From Escherichia phage vB_EcoM_G2285: DNA of 64,000 bases. The DNA is taken from sequence record MK327933.1, one strand, 5' to 3'. The translations under genes were made by a program, and so were the position numbers. The notes under the pieces are model-generated. The model saw nothing but the letters and a program-made list of their open reading frames with translations, was not told where the DNA came from and ran no database searches. Numbering within the stretch: position 1 is the stretch's first letter; the number at the start of each line of letters is the position of its first letter. Below, piece after piece: positions 3,025 through 35,783 of the stretch.

Positions 3025-5007
3025 ATGGCACTTCTCTCTCCGGGCGTTGAGCTCAAAGAAACTACCGTACAGAGTACTGTAGTTAATAACTCCACTGGTA
3101 CTGCTGCCCTGGCTGGAAAATTCCAATGGGGACCTGCATTCCAGATTAAACAAATCACTGATGAAGTTGCATTAGTTGATATGTTTGGTACTCCTAATAC
3201 GGATACAGCAGATTATTTCATGTCTGCTATGAACTTCCTTCAATATGGTAATGACCTTCGTGTTGTACGTGCAGTTGATCGTGATACTGCTAAGAACTCA
3301 TCTCCTGTAGCAGGCAATATTGAATTCACAATCTCTGCCGCTGGTAGTAACTATGCGGTTGGTGATAAAATTATCGTTAAGTATTTGACCGAAACTGTTG
3401 AAGCAGATGGTTATGTCACTTCAGTTGATGTCGATGGTAAAATTCTTAACATTTATATCCCAACCGGTAAAATTATTGCTCGTGCAAAAGAAATTAATGA
3501 ATATCCGGCATTGGGTTCTAACTGGACCGCCGAAGTTGCCAGTTCTTCTTCTGGACTCTCTGGCGTTATTACAATTGGTTCTATCGTAACCGATTCTGGT
3601 ATTCTGTTAACTGAAGTTGAAACTTCTGAAGAAGCTATTACTTCTCTAACTTTCCAAGAATCTATTAAAAAATATGGTGTCCCAGGCGTAGTTGCTCTTT
3701 ATCCTGGTGAACTTGGCGACCAGCTCGAAATTGAAATCGTATCTAAAGCAGACTATGACAAAGGTGCTTCAGCCCAGTTAAAAATTTATCCTGATGGTGG
3801 TACTCGTGCATCTACGGCTAAAGCAATCTTTGGGTATGGCCCACAAACTGATGACCAATATGCAATTATCGTTCGTCGTAACGATGCTGTAGTCCAGAGT
3901 GTAGTTCTTTCTACTAAACGCGGTGAACGCGATATTTATGGTAGTAATATCTTTATTGATGATTTCTTTGCTAAAGGCGCAAGCAATTATATTTTCGCTA
4001 CTGCACAAGGTTGGCCAAAAGGTTTCTCTGGCGTAATCAAACTGGGTGGCGGCTTATCATCTAATGAAACGGTTGACGCCGGCGATTTAATGGAAGCTTG
4101 GGATTTGTTTGCTGACCGCGAATCTGTTAATGCGCAGTTGTTTATTGCTGGTTCTTGTGCAGGTGAATCTTTAGAAGTTGCTTCTACAGTTCAGAAACAT
4201 GTTGTAGCAATTGGTGATTCTCGCCAAGATTGCTTGGTTCTTTGCTCACCTCCACGTTCAACTATAGTCGGTATTCCTGTTAATCGTGCAGTTGATAATC
4301 TGGTTGATTGGCGTACTGCGTCAGGAACTTACACTGATAATAACTTTAATGTAAGTTCTACTTATGCCGCTATTGATGGTAACTATAAATATCAATATGA
4401 TAAATATAATGATGTGAATCGTTGGGTTCCATTAGCTGCTGATATTGCTGGTCTTTGTGCTCGCACAGACAATATTTCTCAGCCTTGGATGTCTCCTGCT
4501 GGTTATAACCGTGGACAAATTCTTAACGTTATTAAGCTTGCAATTGAAACTCGTCAACCACAGCGTGATCGTTTGTATCAGGAAGCTATTAACCCTGTTA
4601 CTGGTACCGGTGGTGATGGGTATGTTCTGTACGGTGATAAAACTGCCACTTCTGTTCCTTCACCATTTGACCGTATTAACGTTCGTCGTTTGTTCAATAT
4701 GGTTAAAACGAACATTGGTTCAGCATCTAAATATCGCCTGTTTGAATTGAACAACGCATTTACCCGTTCTTCTTTCCGTACAGAGACTTCTCAATATCTA
4801 CAGGGTATTAAAGCTCTCGGTGGTGTATATAACTTTAAAGTTGTTTGTGATACTACCAATAACACACCAGCAGTTATCGACCGTAATGAATTTGTAGCTA
4901 CTTTCTACTTACAACCTGCCCGCTCGATAAATTATATTACGTTGAACTTTGTAGCAACAGCAACTGGTGCCGATTTCGACGAACTGATTGGTGCTGTAGG
5001 TAGTTAA
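3025..5007 (+). CDS. 18: Tail sheath protein gp18
   Basis: 660 aa, T4 gp18 length and sequence pattern. Confidence 0.95.
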   Translation: MALLSPGVELKETTVQSTVVNNSTGTAALAGKFQWGPAFQIKQITDEVALVDMFGTPNTDTADYFMSAMNFLQYGNDLRVVRAVDRDTAKNSSPVAGNIEFTISAAGSNYAVGDKIIVKYLTETVEADGYVTSVDVDGKILNIYIPTGKIIARAKEINEYPALGSNWTAEVASSSSGLSGVITIGSIVTDSGILLTEVETSEEAITSLTFQESIKKYGVPGVVALYPGELGDQLEIEIVSKADYDKGASAQLKIYPDGGTRASTAKAIFGYGPQTDDQYAIIVRRNDAVVQSVVLSTKRGERDIYGSNIFIDDFFAKGASNYIFATAQGWPKGFSGVIKLGGGLSSNETVDAGDLMEAWDLFADRESVNAQLFIAGSCAGESLEVASTVQKHVVAIGDSRQDCLVLCSPPRSTIVGIPVNRAVDNLVDWRTASGTYTDNNFNVSSTYAAIDGNYKYQYDKYNDVNRWVPLAADIAGLCARTDNISQPWMSPAGYNRGQILNVIKLAIETRQPQRDRLYQEAINPVTGTGGDGYVLYGDKTATSVPSPFDRINVRRLFNMVKTNIGSASKYRLFELNNAFTRSSFRTETSQYLQGIKALGGVYNFKVVCDTTNNTPAVIDRNEFVATFYLQPARSINYITLNFVATATGADFDELIGAVGS

Positions 5008-5017
5008 TAAGACGCCT

Positions 5018-5039
5018 GATGGGCTATTTCGGTAGCCCA
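5018..5039 (+). terminator. Hairpin after gene 18 (ATGGGCTA-tttcgg-TAGCCCAT)
   Basis: 8-bp inverted repeat right after the gene 18 stop; no strong U-run. Confidence 0.3.
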
Positions 5040-5047
5040 TATAAATA
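5040..5047 (+). promoter_or_regulatory. Late promoter TATAAATA upstream of gene 19
   Basis: Exact TATAAATA in the 18-19 spacer. Confidence 0.5.
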
Positions 5048-5119
5048 TACTATATCGTTTAAAAATTAATTCTATGGGCCTCCGGTTAATCCTAAGCCCA
5101 TATTACTACAGAGGCTAAT

Positions 5120-5611
5120 ATGTTTGTAGATGACGTAACTCGCGCCTTCGAATCAGGTGATTTCGCTCGCCCTAACCTGTTCGAAGTAGAAATCTCTTAT
5201 CTTGGGCAAAACTTTAGCTTCCAGTGTCGTGCTACGGCTCTTCCAGCTGCAATCGTTGAAAAGGTTCCTGTTTCTTATATGAACCGTAAAATTAACGTGG
5301 CTGGTGATCGTACATTCGATGATTGGACTATTACAGTAATGAACGATGATGCTCATAGCATTCGTCAGAAATTTGTTGATTGGCAAGGTATTGCAGCAGG
5401 ACAAGGTAATGAAATTACCGGTGGTAAACCTGCTGAATATAAAAAGTCTGCTATCGTTCGTCAATTTGCCCGTGATGCTAAAACGGTCACTAAAGAAGTT
5501 GAAATTGTCGGCTTGTGGCCTACTAACGTTGGCGAAGTATCTCTTGACTGGGACAGCAATAACGAGATTGAAACGTTCGAAGTAACTCTTGCTCTTGATT
5601 GGTGGGAATAA
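5120..5611 (+). CDS. 19: Tail tube protein gp19
   Basis: 163 aa, T4 gp19-like. Confidence 0.9.
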   Translation: MFVDDVTRAFESGDFARPNLFEVEISYLGQNFSFQCRATALPAAIVEKVPVSYMNRKINVAGDRTFDDWTITVMNDDAHSIRQKFVDWQGIAAGQGNEITGGKPAEYKKSAIVRQFARDAKTVTKEVEIVGLWPTNVGEVSLDWDSNNEIETFEVTLALDWWE

Positions 5612-5667: not shown

Positions 5668-5695
5668 TAACTATAATTCCCATTCGGAGAATACA

Positions 5696-7319
<1,624 letters not shown>

Positions 7320-26757: not shown

Positions 26758-28845
26758 CTATCCTTGGACAAATTTAAACGGAACCGATTCTAAATCCATT
26801 AAAGATGCTAACAGTTTCAATCCTTTAGGTGCACTAGTTTTTTCTATAAATGAGGAGAACGATACCGGCTCATCTGATTCGATTTCACCCGTCATAGCAA
26901 CTACCTCGCCTGTTTCCATGAGAACATCACCATCGTAAATGACAGCTTCGTCCAACTGGTCCGAGGACATGACTTCAGCTTGAATAAATTTAAGGTTGGA
27001 TTCTAAACCTGCACCAGTGTCAGATGACGCATCTGTAATTTTATTTATCTGCAAGAGAATGCCTCTAGGCAAAATAATTTCTTGCTCATTAGGGTGATTA
27101 CTCAACTGTCCTGGATAAATCACGTTAACTTTATGGGCGCCATCAATAGCCCATCCAACATTAACACGAATTTGTTCTGGCGCATGCATAGCGGTACGCA
27201 CCAGACTAGGAGAAATAGTAACACCTTCGTCATTATTGTCAATGTTAAGCTCTTTGCGAACTTCTTCAGGAGCAAGTCCAAGGGCAACGTTCTCTTTAAA
27301 CCCACCGAAAATAATAGGAGCTAGTGAAGTGGAAACATAGTTTCTGAAATAGAATACCTTATTTTTAACCATTGCTTCATAAATAGGCATTCTGATAGAC
27401 TGAGCTCTATATAACGTTAGTCCTTCAGGTAAACGGTCTCCATTTAAAAACGCCGAATCAAGACCATCAATAGCGCGTTTAACTTCATCTTCATCTGCAA
27501 CATCGTAAAAATCTGGTTTATAACGACCTAACAACATATTATTGATATCGGTATACGCGGAAGAGGCATATTCGCGAATAGCTCGTTTTTCAGCAACAGA
27601 GTATTGTTTAGGGTCCCGATTCATTGTTATATTAAAGGTGCCTCTAGCCGATTCTCGTGCATAAGTATACATCACATTAGACAAGAACGCTGATTTACGT
27701 TGTTTCCAAGTTTTTTCAGATACTTCAGCTAAAACATCGTCGGCCAGTTGGAAATTATCCCGTCTAAAATCTTCAAACCATTCGTCTTTAATAGAGTCTG
27801 CAATTTCATTTGCAGCTTCAACAAAAGCAGTTAATGCTTTAACAGATGTTGTTTTTCCAGTTTTAATTTTCTTAGCAAACTTTTCTAAAGTTGGCTTAAT
27901 AACACTACCATAAGAAACTTCATCAGCAAATCTAAAGGATTCATCAATATGATTATAAATCTTATTTTCGATATCAGCAACTAAAGTGCCTTTTGCTGTG
28001 GATGATGCTTGGGCTAGTACGATTTCATATGCTTCAGGAAGTAATTCGGCTGTAGCCGGGCCACTAACTTCTTTAGCAGAATTTTCGTATTTCTGGAATA
28101 ACTCACCTTCTTGGCGGTCAGCTTCTAAAGATTGGCTTGCGGCAATAGCGCGCCGAGAAATTTTAGTACGAGCAATAACAGGCTTATCTTTACGTTTTTC
28201 TTCTACAGCAGCAATAGAACCAGCGATAGCCGTTTCTTTGGTGACCTTTTCACCAGTCTTTTTACTCACATAAACTTCGCCAACATCAGAATCTACTTTC
28301 GTGTATAACTCTGTGTTAATGTTAGGGATGCCTTTAATATCTTCAATGTTGGCATTTTTACGAACCATCATCACATAGGTGTGTTTACCTGTGAATTGAT
28401 ACATTGCCGACAATACTTTAAAACGACCACCGGTTTTAGTAGAAACTAAACGAGCAAGAAGAGTTTGAAGCTGTTGTCCACGTCCTTTCAATTTCTTGGT
28501 AGGGAATCGGAACAGAACTGCATCCATACGAAGAGCTTTAACTTGTTCATATACTGTATTGAAAATGGTGTTGATTGCATCAATAGGAGCAGGACCAAGG
28601 CCATTTTTCAATTCGGCGAGATTACCCTTTTCAGACAGACTCATAATAACAACATGAGCGTATTTGTCGCCAAGTTTAACTTGTTTTACAGCGTCGCCTT
28701 CGGAAAGGTAAGAGAATAAACGAACTACAATATTTGTATCGATATCACCAATTTTCCAGACTTGTGGAACTTTAGCTTTAGGGTTCAAATTGACGACAGG
28801 AAGACTGCCTTCAGATTCAAACACTTCATTTAATTGTTCAGACAT
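26758..28845 (-). CDS. alt: Alt ADP-ribosyltransferase (packaged into the head)
   Basis: 695 aa; position between 54 and 30; conserved segments (NYVSTS, PNEQEI, LPRG) recalled from T4 Alt. Confidence 0.8.
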   Translation of the reverse strand: MSEQLNEVFESEGSLPVVNLNPKAKVPQVWKIGDIDTNIVVRLFSYLSEGDAVKQVKLGDKYAHVVIMSLSEKGNLAELKNGLGPAPIDAINTIFNTVYEQVKALRMDAVLFRFPTKKLKGRGQQLQTLLARLVSTKTGGRFKVLSAMYQFTGKHTYVMMVRKNANIEDIKGIPNINTELYTKVDSDVGEVYVSKKTGEKVTKETAIAGSIAAVEEKRKDKPVIARTKISRRAIAASQSLEADRQEGELFQKYENSAKEVSGPATAELLPEAYEIVLAQASSTAKGTLVADIENKIYNHIDESFRFADEVSYGSVIKPTLEKFAKKIKTGKTTSVKALTAFVEAANEIADSIKDEWFEDFRRDNFQLADDVLAEVSEKTWKQRKSAFLSNVMYTYARESARGTFNITMNRDPKQYSVAEKRAIREYASSAYTDINNMLLGRYKPDFYDVADEDEVKRAIDGLDSAFLNGDRLPEGLTLYRAQSIRMPIYEAMVKNKVFYFRNYVSTSLAPIIFGGFKENVALGLAPEEVRKELNIDNNDEGVTISPSLVRTAMHAPEQIRVNVGWAIDGAHKVNVIYPGQLSNHPNEQEIILPRGILLQINKITDASSDTGAGLESNLKFIQAEVMSSDQLDEAVIYDGDVLMETGEVVAMTGEIESDEPVSFSSFIEKTSAPKGLKLLASLMDLESVPFKFVQG

Positions 28846-28879: not shown

Positions 28880-28901
28880 CCAAAAAGAGCCCGAAGGCTC
28901 T
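28880..28901 (-). terminator. Intrinsic terminator (GAGCC-ttcg-GGCTC plus T-run)
   Basis: UUCG tetraloop hairpin and T-run on minus strand, upstream of alt. Confidence 0.55.
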
Positions 28902-29110
28902 TAATCCACAATCGGAAGCAAAGTACGATAAACTTCAAAATTAGGGCCTTTTTCGTACCCATTAACGTTATCTACGAAAACCCGATACGAATTTTCATTA
29001 GGAAAATCTAATATAATCTGAGAGCAAGAGGTGGAAACATCTCCACCATCCTTCTTAGCTACAATAACTGTTTCTAAATAAGCTTTCATTATAAACCTGT
29101 CTGGGACCAC
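28901..29110 (-). CDS. Hypothetical protein (alt.1-like)
   Basis: 69 aa ORF between gene 30 and alt. Confidence 0.45.
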   Translation of the reverse strand: MVPDRFIMKAYLETVIVAKKDGGDVSTSCSQIILDFPNENSYRVFVDNVNGYEKGPNFEVYRTLLPIVD

Positions 29111-30582
29111 GGTCCAAATACGTCTTCAAACGAATCCGCTTCTGTTTTATCAAAACGGAACCCTTTAATAATTGGAAGGAAAATACCTACAGTACCTTCA
29201 CGGCCTTTAGAATGAACCCAACCATTACATTCACAATCAGCGATACGTCCAATTAATTTACCTTCACGAGCTTCGGTCATTAATCGTTCACGGTCTAAAT
29301 CATGACGCTCGTCTAAAGGAATAAGAACCTTTACACCGTCAACTGTTTTATGAGTTGTATCTTTAAAACCTGAACCACAATCGGTTGTAATACGACGACA
29401 ACGTGATACGAGTTCGACACCACCTAATTTGTTAGGGTCTTTAGAGTGTTCATAGTATCCTACAACTTCTAAAGCGATATCAATAACTTCTTTAAATTTA
29501 ATTAGGTTCTTAGAGCGTTTGTTTTCCCAGTATGAATCACGGTTTTTAAGGATAATACCTTCAAGACCTTGGTCAACATATTTTTTATAAACCACTTTAG
29601 CTTCATCAAGATTACGAACTAACTGGTTTTCGATAGGTTCAATTCGTTTAAAGCCTTCAGCCATATTTTCAAGAGCAGCAAAACGAACATCGTATTTCTG
29701 ACCTTTAATTTTGCCATCAGAATAGACTTCATCTAAAGGAACATAGTCCCAGGCTTGAAGAACCATACCTTCCGCTTCTTTAGGAGAAATAGTCCCTTGA
29801 AGAGATTTATTTGCTAAACCATTTGAAGTGCTACGGTCTGCAACTTGCACTTCTTCGGATTCTTCATTATCACCAAATAAGAACGACAGGTCATTTCCTG
29901 AGCTCACAGCCTTTTTAATATCGAATGAATGATAAACTAATTCACCGTCGATTAAAACCCCATTAGGGTGTCTTTCACGAGCTTCTTTAGTCATTTCCAT
30001 TAGTTCATCCGCTAATAGAGTAAGACCATGATATTCGTTGCCGGCACGAGAAAAGAATTGAACACCATCATCGCGAACTTCAGCGAAACAACGAGCACCA
30101 TCTGCTTTTAATTGGGCAAATGCAGGCCATTTAATATTTTTAGTAATCAATTTCTCATCATATGCAGATGCTAACATCTGTGGTTGCAATTGAATAAGTC
30201 CAGGCCACACCTTATTCGCTATAGACACTGAAGCACCTACTTCAAGGTCGCGCATCATTACACGACGAAGGACTTCTACATCATCAGGTTTACCATCAGC
30301 GATATAACCCATGAGCTCTTTAATTGCAGCATTACCAGTGAGTTTACGAGTGGCTAATGTGAACTCAATAAAATCCAACATGGCATCTAATTCAAGAAGA
30401 CCATACGCTTGAGACCTTTCACCTGGTCCTGGCCATTTCTTAATATAATACTGGATACCACGTGCATATGTTAAACGATACACACGTTCAAGTAATTTGT
30501 TGTCCTTATTTTTCTTAAGGATTTCCTGTTTTGTTTTAGTAGAACCGATCGCAGCTATTTGGTTTAAAATATCTAAAATCAT
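29089..30582 (-). CDS. 30: ATP-dependent DNA ligase gp30
   Basis: 497 aa; adenylation lysine motif KADGAR; matches remembered T4 ligase. Confidence 0.95.
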   Translation of the reverse strand: MILDILNQIAAIGSTKTKQEILKKNKDNKLLERVYRLTYARGIQYYIKKWPGPGERSQAYGLLELDAMLDFIEFTLATRKLTGNAAIKELMGYIADGKPDDVEVLRRVMMRDLEVGASVSIANKVWPGLIQLQPQMLASAYDEKLITKNIKWPAFAQLKADGARCFAEVRDDGVQFFSRAGNEYHGLTLLADELMEMTKEARERHPNGVLIDGELVYHSFDIKKAVSSGNDLSFLFGDNEESEEVQVADRSTSNGLANKSLQGTISPKEAEGMVLQAWDYVPLDEVYSDGKIKGQKYDVRFAALENMAEGFKRIEPIENQLVRNLDEAKVVYKKYVDQGLEGIILKNRDSYWENKRSKNLIKFKEVIDIALEVVGYYEHSKDPNKLGGVELVSRCRRITTDCGSGFKDTTHKTVDGVKVLIPLDERHDLDRERLMTEAREGKLIGRIADCECNGWVHSKGREGTVGIFLPIIKGFRFDKTEADSFEDVFGPWSQTGL

Positions 30583-30857: not shown

Positions 30858-31046
30858 TTAACAATTTATAGACCAAGTCCATTTAGACGAATCTAAAGGA
30901 AAGTTTTGAATCGTCCACCACGGCTGCATATCAGTTGGTCCTGGGGTTCGCCAGGTATATGGAGTACGTGTTGTCGAGGGGCCACCAATTTGATTAGGCC
31001 ATGCACCTGGACTTGTTGCACCAGATTCTTTAAGCAAATCCGCCAA
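30858..31046 (-). CDS. Putative 62-codon Trp/Pro-rich ORF in frame with the upstream HAD-like gene across a single UGA (doubtful)
   Basis: TTG-initiated track ORF; first codon directly abuts the UGA stop of the upstream ORF in the same frame; GC-rich and compositionally atypical. Confidence 0.25.
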   Translation of the reverse strand: MADLLKESGATSPGAWPNQIGGPSTTRTPYTWRTPGPTDMQPWWTIQNFPLDSSKWTWSINC

Positions 31047-31682
31047 TCATTTTAAAAGGTCTTCACGATCTGAATCTGAATTATGCTCAGGTGGAACCAA
31101 ACGAGATTCAATATCATCCCACGTGTGTACACGTTGTGCAGTACGAGGAATGGCATCACGTTCACCACGGGCCAACCAATAAATCGGTACATTGAGAATT
31201 TCTGCCGCATGGTCACAGTGATGAGCTAAATCGTCAACGTAACAAATTACGTTATATTTTGTTTTAGCTAGTTCGAATAATTGTTCCTTTGACGAATCAT
31301 GACCACACATCATTACTTCAGAAAAGGCACCTGGGAACAAAGCATTCAAATTAAATTGTCTATTCAATCGAGCATCAATTGAATCACCTAGCGCCGTCAC
31401 GGCTACAAAATTATAGTCTTCTTTTAGTTTATTGATAACTCGAAGAGCATCTGAATAAGGCGCTAAGTAACGAATAAAATCAGAGCGATTATATTTTTCT
31501 ATTAATTGTTTACCAAGGTTATCGTCGGTATTGAATAGTTTACCAGGAGAAATAAATTTTTCATCCTGAATCATTTTTAAAATATGTTCTAATGGAAGAT
31601 TATATTTTTGGGCAAAATAAGGAAGTCCAGATTGCCAGCTTAAACATACACCATCAATATCAGTCAAAATAGTAGGCTTCAT
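31047..31682 (-). CDS. HAD-superfamily hydrolase-like protein (30.2 position; possible nucleotidase)
   Basis: 211 aa; N-terminal DIDGV motif and later YVDDL acidic motif. Confidence 0.6.
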   Translation of the reverse strand: MKPTILTDIDGVCLSWQSGLPYFAQKYNLPLEHILKMIQDEKFISPGKLFNTDDNLGKQLIEKYNRSDFIRYLAPYSDALRVINKLKEDYNFVAVTALGDSIDARLNRQFNLNALFPGAFSEVMMCGHDSSKEQLFELAKTKYNVICYVDDLAHHCDHAAEILNVPIYWLARGERDAIPRTAQRVHTWDDIESRLVPPEHNSDSDREDLLK

Positions 31683-32146
31683 AAAGAGTCTCTTAATAGG
31701 TTTAACACATCAATAAATTCAGCTTCGGTTAGTATTGTATCATCTTTTGTTAGACCACTGGCCATGCTGTGCTTCAAAATTTTTCCTTTAGAGGCTTGTA
31801 AGGCATCACGAAACCCCTTGTTTTGGATCGCGGCTTCAAAATACGCATTTGTGTATAATTCTTTCCACGCTTCGGAGTATCTTGAAAACGGAACTCCTAA
31901 CCAGAAGAGAGTCCCACGGTCCTGAGCTCTTGCATAAGACCTTCCAGCTTGCTGTGCGGCCAGTCCTGACAGCCCAAATATACGTCTTTGTTGTTCAACA
32001 TTTTTCACCTTACATCCTTGGAGAAATCCTTCAAGACCTCCGAATTGAATACCATCCATAACAAAAGGCCATTGAGCAAAGTTACTTAATGCACACGACG
32101 GCCACTTGAAATTACTTCTTATTTCTAATTCAGACATCTTTAACAC
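31679..32146 (-). CDS. NADAR/YbiA-like domain protein (30.3 position)
   Basis: 155 aa; LSNFAQWPFVMDG...EGFLQGCK resembles the E. coli YbiA N-terminal signature FSNFAAWPIKVDG...EHYFQAQK. Confidence 0.55.
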   Translation of the reverse strand: MLKMSELEIRSNFKWPSCALSNFAQWPFVMDGIQFGGLEGFLQGCKVKNVEQQRRIFGLSGLAAQQAGRSYARAQDRGTLFWLGVPFSRYSEAWKELYTNAYFEAAIQNKGFRDALQASKGKILKHSMASGLTKDDTILTEAEFIDVLNLLRDSL

Positions 32147-32348
32147 TTATAATTTCAACATCAGCCCAATGACCGTATCCAGGTATACGGTCTTCGATAG
32201 ATAAATTTCTGACATTTTTAGGCATTTTAATTGACGTAACGTATGGTTCTAAACGGTTTTCCGCGTAATATGGAAAAACGTCGGTTACACGATAAGTAAC
32301 TTCAATCATTTCCGTACCAAACAATTTCTGGATTAATTTATTCAACAT
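32130..32348 (-). CDS. Hypothetical protein
   Basis: 72 aa ORF; start overlaps the end of the upstream -1 frame. Confidence 0.45.
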   Translation of the reverse strand: MLNKLIQKLFGTEMIEVTYRVTDVFPYYAENRLEPYVTSIKMPKNVRNLSIEDRIPGYGHWADVEIISVKDV

Positions 32349-32351
32349 GTT

Positions 32352-32576
32352 TCAACCCTTTAATAGGAGATAACTCTTTACCCATACGTATGTCAGAAGT
32401 CCCATCAACCCATTGAACAGCATACGCTTCATTGACAATTCCAGCGGCGGTTTTAAATTCATATACTGCTCAATTTCACATACTGAACCATTTTTATGTT
32501 TCCATAAGCAAATCGTATCAATAGAACCTGCGATACCGTTAGAAACATATTTGCGTTCGAAGTTGGTGTAGTTCAT
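32352..32576 (-). CDS. Hypothetical protein; possible -1 frameshift at the U_UUA_AAA heptamer 32451-32457
   Basis: 74 aa zero-frame ORF with a hydrophobic tail; the -1 frame opens at the heptamer and runs 37 codons into a TAATG overlap with the next gene. Confidence 0.4.
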   Translation of the reverse strand: MNYTNFERKYVSNGIAGSIDTICLWKHKNGSVCEIEQYMNLKPPLELSMKRMLFNGLMGLLTYVWVKSYLLLKG

Positions 32577-32675
32577 TTTATTCTCCAGTTGTTTTATTGA
32601 TTAGGTGGTACAAGTCTATAGTAACACATCCTACAGGAGAGTAAACATCTTTTTTAAACTTTTTCTGCCCTAAAC

Positions 32676-32701
32676 GCACAAAAGGGAGACCGAAGTCTCC
32701 C
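32676..32701 (-). terminator. Intrinsic terminator (GGGAGAC-ttcg-GTCTCCC plus T-run)
   Basis: Perfect hairpin and T-run on minus strand just past the 59-aa ORF stop. Confidence 0.65.
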
Positions 32702-34220: not shown

Positions 34221-34791
34221 AAAAGTTTCGAATTTGTTCCCAATTCAGAGAACGAAGATTATTACGAGAGTACTGAATTACTTCAATACCAGCTTGTTTA
34301 AGAATGTCTGCCCAATTTTCAGGAGACCGGTCATATAATTCTGCATATACAACCTTTTTAATGCCTGACTGTGTGATAGCTTTAGTGCAATCAGGACATG
34401 GAGAAAGTGTCGTATACAACGTAGCACCTTCAATAGAATTACCTTTACGAGCTGCAAACAAAATTGCATTCAATTCAGCATGGATTTCGTTATTAGCAGA
34501 CCATACACTATGAGCAGCCCGATGTTCTTTAGCCAAAACAAAATTATCTGCCCGTCCAAATGCTGTAGTGCCTTCTTTATGTCCAGCAACGATGTCCGGG
34601 CTTGGTTTATTCTTCAACCAGCCGTTTTCGGATGCATGTTCGCAACAGTTTGTACCACCTGAAGGAGAGCCATTATAACCTGTAGAAATAATGCGTCCAT
34701 CTTTTTCAATGACGGCACCAACTTTCCATGAACAACATTTTGATTCTTGAGAAATCAAATAAGCAATTTGAAGATATGTGCTAGCTTTCAT
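34210..34791 (-). CDS. cd: dCMP deaminase (Cd)
   Basis: 193 aa; zinc-binding HAE and PCxxC motifs; T4 Cd-like. Confidence 0.9.
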   Translation of the reverse strand: MKASTYLQIAYLISQESKCCSWKVGAVIEKDGRIISTGYNGSPSGGTNCCEHASENGWLKNKPSPDIVAGHKEGTTAFGRADNFVLAKEHRAAHSVWSANNEIHAELNAILFAARKGNSIEGATLYTTLSPCPDCTKAITQSGIKKVVYAELYDRSPENWADILKQAGIEVIQYSRNNLRSLNWEQIRNFCGE

Positions 34792-35783
34792 TATTGAACC
34801 TTATTAATATAAGTTAACAGCTCTTTAGTTTGTTCCCAACTGATGCACGCATCGGTAACGGAAACGCCATAGGACATATTATCAGAAATTTTTTGATTTC
34901 CTTCATGTAGGAATGATTCTATCATAATTCCTTTGACCAAATCATTAGCTGCTAAATTTTTACCAATACCAATTTGATTGCTATAATGCCCAGCAGCGTT
35001 TGCATGGCTACAGTCAACCATTACATAATGATTCAGACCTACTGCACTTGCTTTGTTAGAAGCTTCTTGAATATCAGAAGAATGATAGTTCGGGCCGTTG
35101 GTCCCGCCACGCAATACGATATGCGTATTCTGATTACCTTCAGCTTCAACAATGCCTACAGTACCATCGACGTCCATACCCATATACCGATGAGGCCGGG
35201 CGGCACTATACATCGCGTCTGTAGCTACTTTAATAGAACCATTGGTCGCGTTCTTGAAGCCTACGCACATCGGTAGACCTGAAGCAATTTCACGATGTGT
35301 CTGACTTTCAGTCGTACGGGCGCCAATAGCAACCCATGAGAAAATACCAGAAAGATACTTAATCGTGAATGGGTCTAATACTTCAGTTGCTAACGGAAGT
35401 CCCATACGTAGAAGTTTACGACACAATGTTCGTGCAACTATAAGACCGTGGTTCATATCAAAACTTCCGTCAAGATATGGATCATTTACAAGACCTTTCC
35501 AACCTACGGTAGTTCGAGGCTTTTCAAAATAAACGCGCATCACTAACAGAACATTAGGAAGACGAGTTTGAAGTTCAGCCAGACGTTTGCCGTATTCAAC
35601 AGCAGCAATAGGGTCATGAATTGAACAAGGACCTACAACAATAAGTTTGCGTGGGTCTTCACCGTTCATAATCGAATTAACTTGTTCGCGATGAGAAGCC
35701 ACTTGTGATGCGTAAGCTTCCGACAAAGGAATAATCTCAGCCAGTTCTTTTGGAGAAATAAGTTTTCTGACGACAGGTAACAT
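34791..35783 (-). CDS. 3-deoxy-D-arabino-heptulosonate-7-phosphate (DAHP) synthase, class I (AroG/AroF-like)
   Basis: 330 aa; GPCSIHD, MRVYFEKPRTTVGWKGL, IGARTTESQ, GFKN, LRGG, CSHAN, EGNQ, TDACISWE motifs; stop overlaps the cd start (TAATG). Confidence 0.85.
   Translation of the reverse strand: MLPVVRKLISPKELAEIIPLSEAYASQVASHREQVNSIMNGEDPRKLIVVGPCSIHDPIAAVEYGKRLAELQTRLPNVLLVMRVYFEKPRTTVGWKGLVNDPYLDGSFDMNHGLIVARTLCRKLLRMGLPLATEVLDPFTIKYLSGIFSWVAIGARTTESQTHREIASGLPMCVGFKNATNGSIKVATDAMYSAARPHRYMGMDVDGTVGIVEAEGNQNTHIVLRGGTNGPNYHSSDIQEASNKASAVGLNHYVMVDCSHANAAGHYSNQIGIGKNLAANDLVKGIMIESFLHEGNQKISDNMSYGVSVTDACISWEQTKELLTYINKVQ

Follow-up and report, generated by a model that had tools for sequence, protein, structure and literature searches.

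What does a small open reading frame upstream of the DNA ligase gene do for Escherichia phage vB_EcoM_G2285 (G2285), and could its product protect the phage from host defences that ADP-ribosylate DNA? The analysis covered a 64,000-nt stretch of the phage's sequence record (MK327933.1), referred to here as the window, and all coordinates are those of that stretch. A first-pass annotation, made from the sequence alone, had likened the frame to E. coli YbiA, a NADAR-family protein, and proposed either an ADP-ribose-processing, anti-defence role or a part in nucleotide metabolism. The frame itself was confirmed. It runs unbroken from 31679 to 32146 on the minus strand (155 aa if counted from its GTG, as in the ORF list), and the stretch that had been quoted from it, LSNFAQWPFVMDGIQFGGLEGFLQGCKV, is present within it.

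The beginning of the gene, however, is better placed three codons further in than the GTG at 32146 that had been taken as the start of a 155-aa product. This GTG comes immediately after an in-frame TAA, and T4 has GCA at the same codon, whereas the ATG at 32137 is common to the window, T4 and RB69 in the alignment, and its equivalent is the annotated start in the records of both T4 and NBG1. Moreover, counting from this ATG brings the published functional residues to E36 and K43. For these reasons, the gene almost certainly starts at ATG 32137 and encodes 152 aa, and the codons ahead of it probably contribute nothing to the protein. The coding region can be laid out as follows:

31679..32137, minus strand: coding sequence of adfN (gene 30.3), 152 aa plus stop, based on the conserved ATG, PF08010, dN/dS and the AF2 model
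32138..32146, minus strand: three extra codons, GTG TTA AAG, with an in-frame TAA just before the GTG; not conserved in T4

The adfN ATG shares nucleotides with the stop codon of 30.4, the ORF upstream (ATGTCTGA), and its TGA likewise with the ATG of 30.2. Such stop-start overlaps on both sides suggest that translation of adfN is coupled to that of its two neighbours.

Judged by its sequence, the ORF is the gp30.3 orthologue (adfN) of a Mosigvirus-like T-even phage. The product matches PF08010 (Phage_30_3, “Bacteriophage protein GP30.3”) along the entire model (positions 1–138 of 138; E=5.1e-69; 230.9 bits, the cut-off being 36 bits), it matches phrog_652 with E=1.3e-51, and within the T4 superfamily ~1,500 phage genomes carry a homologue. 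The gene order alt, alt.1, 30, 30.1, 30.2, 30.3, 30.4 is common to the window, T4, RB69, PhAPEC2 and NBG1, and in each case adfN lies upstream of the ligase gene with 30.4 and 30.2 as its neighbours. As for the phage itself, it is a T-even member of the RB69 group (Mosigvirus), and a 24-kb stretch of the window is 97–98% identical to relatives that include Shigella phage JK45 and Escherichia phage KAW3E185; neither of the BASEL Mosigviruses Bas46 and Bas47, which could have linked the allele to a measured DarTG1 phenotype, appeared among the best 60 DNA matches listed.

At the protein level, the 152-aa adfN product is 100% identical to that of the Mosigvirus PhAPEC2 and shares 97.4% identity with T4 gp30.3, from which it differs at four of 152 residues (K11R, E89P, I120V and M125I), none of them touching an invariant column of the family. 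Against T4, 42 nucleotide differences in adfN are accompanied by only those four amino-acid differences (dN/dS 0.04), and all 11 nucleotide differences from PhAPEC2 are synonymous. Because the nucleotide changes separating these genes are nearly all or all synonymous, adfN is a real gene rather than a chance frame, and is under strong purifying selection.

The NADAR connection is less easily made. When the window protein was searched by itself, PF08010 was the only match in Pfam, with PF08719 (the Pfam NADAR family) giving no match even at E<=10, and no matches were obtained from NCBIfam, PDB sequences or PADLOC. Since these single-protein searches were silent on the point, the link had to rest on the family profile, the members of the family, and the fold. 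The motif that the first-pass annotation had given for YbiA is genuine, since the solved structure of the E. coli protein (chain 2b3w_A) carries FSNFAAWPIKVDGKTWPTSEHYFQAQKF, and a profile of the gp30.3 family built from 66 homologues (35–87% identical to the window protein) aligns to exactly that segment of YbiA (E=0.0062, profile positions 14–67); by our own count, 11 of 28 positions are identical between the ORF stretch and the YbiA motif. Weak matches to PF08719 were also found in 23 of the 66 family members, the best of them at 1.5e-07.

The predicted structure extends this resemblance to the whole chain. An AF2 model of the window protein (pLDDT 92.4, pTM 0.88) has the fold of YbiA, with a helical core between two small sheets, and superposes on YbiA over 132 residues at 2.9 Å; the fold is that of a NADAR. 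A Foldseek search with the model returned three structures, the same three as published for T4 AdfN (PMC11257639). The divergence of the C-terminal half from YbiA, noted in the first-pass annotation, is therefore true of the sequence, where the profile match is restricted to positions 14–67, but not of the fold, which the model conserves across the 132 superposed residues.

Within this predicted fold, three residues and one helix are of particular relevance to activity:

32030..32032, minus strand: codon GAA of Glu36, read from the sequence; invariant in the 66 homologues
32009..32011, minus strand: codon AAG of Lys43, read from the sequence; invariant in the 66 homologues
31769..31771, minus strand: codon CAC of His123; invariant in the 66 homologues, at the end of modelled strand 120–123
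31682..31726, minus strand: C-terminal helix, residues 138–152, intact; model helix 138–151, without the RB69 frameshift

In the family profile, Glu36 and Lys43 correspond to the Glu and the Lys, respectively, in YbiA's TSEHYFQAQKF motif, and the substitutions E36A and K43A each abolish counter-defence by T4 AdfN (PMC11257639). One residue in the last β-strand of NADARs is diagnostic of subfamily, being Glu in the YbiA family, Asp in the BC4488/DarT1-linked family, and His in phage gp30.3 (PMC11125620). Neither the YbiA-subfamily Glu nor the DarG1-type (BC4488) Asp is present at this place; His123 occupies it in the window protein and in all 66 homologues. Further downstream, the alignment shows an extra T in RB69 at the equivalent of window position ~31727 that is found in neither the window nor T4, and the model predicts helix 138–151 with high confidence.

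What such a protein does has been worked out largely in T4. Gene 30.3 of T4 was identified bioinformatically among phage NADARs by Schuller et al. (Mol Cell 2023), as cited in PMC11257639. The gp30.3 NADAR of an E. coli-infecting phage was then reported to remove guanosine-ADPr, and not thymidine-ADPr, in DNA (Cihlova et al., Toxins 2024, PMC11125620); in the same work, guanosine-ADPr was a substrate for every NADAR assayed and thymidine-ADPr for none. The name AdfN, for “anti-DarT factor NADAR”, was given by Johannesman et al. (bioRxiv 2024, PMC11257639; Nat Commun 2025;16:1598), who found the protein to be both necessary and sufficient for the resistance of T2 and T4 to DarTG1 (Nat Commun 2025;16:1598). 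Deletion of adfN from T2 or T4 lowers plaquing on DarTG1 hosts by ~4 logs, AdfN supplied in trans restores RB69 on such hosts in a manner that E36A and K43A abolish, and purified T4 AdfN de-ADP-ribosylates DNA and does not bind DarT1 (PMC11257639). RB69 itself is sensitive to DarTG1, and this sensitivity has been linked to a frameshift in its gene, where a single inserted T near nt 411 costs the protein its last helix (PMC11257639). In a transposon screen described in the HIDEN-SEQ preprint, insertions in T4 30.3/adfN were lost only on DarTG1 hosts; T4 adfN is dispensable on K-12 and essential only when DarTG1 is present (PMC11257639, HIDEN-SEQ preprint).

In view of this work, the proposal of an anti-DarT NADAR was well founded, having been shown experimentally for a T4 orthologue with 97.4% identity, and by the same token it is already in print and is not new. 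The accompanying suggestion of a role in nucleotide metabolism found no support, and the earlier reservation that activity is uncertain is hard to maintain now that activity has been demonstrated for that orthologue. For the G2285 gene itself, the evidence comprises orthology, fold, residue conservation, an intact C-terminus and purifying selection. By analogy, it is highly likely that G2285 adfN encodes a guanine-ADPr DNA glycohydrolase that defeats DarTG1, just as in T4 and T2, because the proteins share 97% identity and the functional residues, the C-terminus and the signature of purifying selection have all been retained.

The proposed mechanism is as follows. AdfN would be a small, single-domain NADAR that cuts the N-glycosidic bond by which ADP-ribose is attached to guanine in DNA, with Glu36 and Lys43 needed for its activity and His123 as the histidine typical of phage NADARs. 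During infection, the host toxin DarT1 would ADP-ribosylate guanines of the replicating phage DNA and AdfN would strip these adducts, acting enzymatically on the DNA and without binding DarT1. Replication could then proceed, and the abortive defence of DarTG1 would fail.

A caveat attaches to the substrate. In uninfected E. coli, T4 AdfN cannot detoxify DarT1 (PMC11257639, PMC11125620), and the substrate preference in vivo could be different for a Mosigvirus. RB69 DNA contains arabinosyl-hmC (PMC11257639), and Mosigvirus adfN might additionally be adapted to DNA that is modified differently from that of T4.

The genes around adfN bear on when it is expressed and with which partners. The first-pass annotation had placed it in the same early transcription unit as ligase and Alt, and both genes are indeed close by and on the same strand. 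The relevant features are:

29089–30582, minus strand: ligase gene 30, from the ORF list and T4 gene order
26758–28845, minus strand: alt (PF03496, E=3e-28)
32701–32677, minus strand: terminator hairpin GGGAGAC-TTCG-GTCTCCC with a T-run, after 30.9, read from the sequence
32618..32646, minus strand: candidate T4-early-type promoter, GTTTAC (32646–32641), 17-nt spacer and TACTAT (32623–32618), read by eye
28882..28900, minus strand: intrinsic-terminator-like hairpin GAGCC-TTCG-GGCTC with TTTTT, between alt.1 and alt, read from the sequence

The candidate promoter resembles, in our own judgement, the early promoters of T4; an A-rich tract lies upstream of its GTTTAC, just after the hairpin at 32701–32677, and from there down to alt.1 the minus-strand genes are head to tail or overlapping. 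From this arrangement we infer a unit made up of 30.7', 30.4, adfN, 30.2, 30.1, ligase and alt.1, in which adfN would be made early from the promoter near 32640, with its translation coupled to that of 30.4. A generic sigma-70 scan did not flag the candidate at 32618..32646. The generic promoter and terminator scan as a whole returned no more sites than in shuffled sequence, and it missed both of the minus-strand hairpins that were read by eye. Beyond alt.1, the hairpin at 28882..28900 is followed by TATAAATT (28873–28866, minus strand), which stands immediately upstream of alt and resembles the T4 late promoter TATAAATA, and the NBG1 and PhAPEC2 records annotate a terminator at the place of this hairpin. 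A unit shared with ligase is thus plausible, but because a terminator and a late-promoter-like motif intervene, the inclusion of alt is unsupported.

This break is also relevant to another conceivable function, namely that the adfN product edits the ADP-ribosylation carried out by the phage's own Alt, ModA and ModB on host proteins or RNA, and so serves as a regulator rather than in counter-defence. The proximity of adfN to alt is conserved in T4, RB69, PhAPEC2, NBG1 and the window, and Alt does have an ADP-ribosyltransferase domain. Nevertheless, alt is set apart from the 30.x unit by the terminator and the motif resembling a late promoter, Alt travels in the phage particle according to the T4 record, the tested NADARs all hydrolysed guanosine-ADPr and none of them thymidine-ADPr (PMC11125620), and T4 adfN can be dispensed with on K-12 and is essential only against DarTG1. 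We therefore consider this role very unlikely. More remote is a metabolic or damage-control enzyme, with adfN encoding a YbiA-type N-glycosidase for small molecules such as riboflavin intermediates, NAD or free derivatives of ADP-ribose; the last-strand residue is the His of phage NADARs, where the YbiA family has Glu, and DNA de-ADP-ribosylation together with a DarTG1-specific phenotype has been demonstrated for the T4 orthologue, making this reading extremely improbable. It is equally hard to credit that adfN is an inactive or decaying allele retained solely by linkage, as in RB69, for while G2285 is a phage of the RB69 genus and neighbouring genes are damaged (30.2 has a nonsense codon and the 30.5–30.8 region has deletions), the adfN frame is full-length without the RB69 T insertion, every family-invariant residue is present, dN/dS relative to T4 is 0.04, and the 11 differences from PhAPEC2 are all synonymous.

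The damage to the neighbours merits description in its own right. Gene 30.2 (30858–31682, minus strand) contains an in-frame opal nonsense codon, TGA at 31049–31047, where PhAPEC2 and NBG1 have CGA. This codon cuts gp30.2 from 274 to 211 aa, with the 62 codons downstream still in frame, and may represent a true mutation, a site of readthrough or an error of sequencing; a frameshift was considered and rejected, as the alignment gives an in-frame change of CGA to TGA. On the other side of adfN, around window positions 32352–32700 in the 30.5–30.8 region, ~1.4 kb of sequence found in the closest relatives is missing (~1.0 kb plus 0.35 kb). The missing segments correspond to positions 4463–5488 and 5693–6044 of the NBG1 locus L001, and comprise NBG1_210, 30.8, most of 30.7 and part of the 198-nt ORF NBG1_209. 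What is left includes a 74-aa ORF (32352–32576) that opens with the first 39 residues of gp30.7 (PF06919) and continues in other sequence. A ~90-bp stretch in this region matches two places in NBG1, and a repeat-mediated deletion is therefore possible. Farther away, a 330-aa ORF (34791–35783, minus strand) adjoins the dCMP deaminase gene, and its counterpart in NBG1 is annotated as DAHP synthase (2-keto-3-deoxy-D-arabino-heptulosonate-7-phosphate synthase). No counterpart was present in the T4 stretch compared. If the annotation is correct, this would be an enzyme of the aromatic-amino-acid pathway in a T-even phage.

The evolutionary history of adfN also appears to differ from that of the genes around it. 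Nucleotide identity to T4 is 85–98% at ~31550–32180 and 35–80% on both flanks, which delimits an island of ~630 bp that takes in the whole of adfN together with the 3' end of 30.4 and ~130 nt at the start of 30.2. Synonymous divergence from T4 (dS) follows the same pattern, at 0.48 for adfN versus 1.3–3.2 for alt.1, ligase, 30.1, 30.2 and 30.4; similarly low values are seen for rIII and gene 31. The simplest reading, albeit an unproven one that we put forward tentatively, is that Mosigvirus and Tequatrovirus lineages have exchanged the island by recombination. In T4, a second frame, gp30.3', is annotated inside adfN (31774–32001, minus strand), and in the window it meets a stop at codon 35, an interruption that speaks against conservation of 30.3' as a gene. 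The overlapping frame was considered as the cause of the low dS of adfN, and was rejected on account of this stop. Lateral exchange is favoured because constraint at the protein level alone cannot lower dS and the 30.3' frame is broken. If exchange did occur, the island would parallel in nature the laboratory crosses by which adfN was moved into RB69, and the counter-defence gene would be passing from one T-even genus to another as a mobile cassette.

The locus opens no new question, since experiments on an orthologue with 97% identity have already confirmed the hypothesis, and its practical value lies in annotation. The DarTG1 counter-defence function was published in 2023–2025, and records still read “hypothetical protein”. 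Among the matches listed, almost all GenBank records with adfN bear this label (there are ~1,500 carriers), while OR062947.1 has “ybiA-like protein” and a Rhizobium phage record has “swarming motility YbiA-like protein”. The PhAPEC2 record, for its part, annotates a shortened adfN coding sequence of 381 nt that begins at an internal ATG. The intact G2285 allele predicts that this phage, unlike its relative RB69, resists hosts that carry DarTG1, a prediction of consequence for host-range prediction and the design of phage therapy.

Among known systems, the more distant NADARs show what is particular to the phage protein. DarG1 (the Geobacter lovleyi NADAR, 8bat) and a Phytophthora NADAR (8bau) are 13–18% identical to G2285 AdfN, which is smaller than either, lacks their extensions of the fold, and has His rather than Asp in the last strand. 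Unlike DarG1, it is an orphan without a partner toxin; no DarT-like gene adjoins adfN, whose neighbours are 30.4 and 30.2, and PADLOC gave no match. T4 AdfN is no substitute for DarG1 in uninfected cells (PMC11257639, PMC11125620). E. coli YbiA (2b3w; PF08719) is ~20% identical, with sequence similarity detectable only in the N-terminal third, and it has a last-strand Glu where G2285 AdfN has His. Its context and proposed roles differ as well, ybiA being part of a LexA-controlled host operon (PMC11125620).

The closest system is T4 gp30.3, that is, AdfN itself. Like the G2285 protein, it has 152 aa (97.4% identity) and E36, K43 and H123, and the two genes share the ATG overlapping 30.4, the stop-start overlap with 30.2, and synteny with ligase and alt. 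They differ in that T4 is a Tequatrovirus and G2285 is Mosigvirus-like, in the four substitutions, and in the interrupted 30.3' frame. RB69 gp30.3, on the other hand, shares the genus-level background of G2285 and is near-identical in DNA, but is a naturally defective form, in which the extra T near nt 411 removes the last helix. Since this frameshift is absent from G2285, its allele is predicted from the sequence to be active, like those of the DarTG1-resistant T-even phages.
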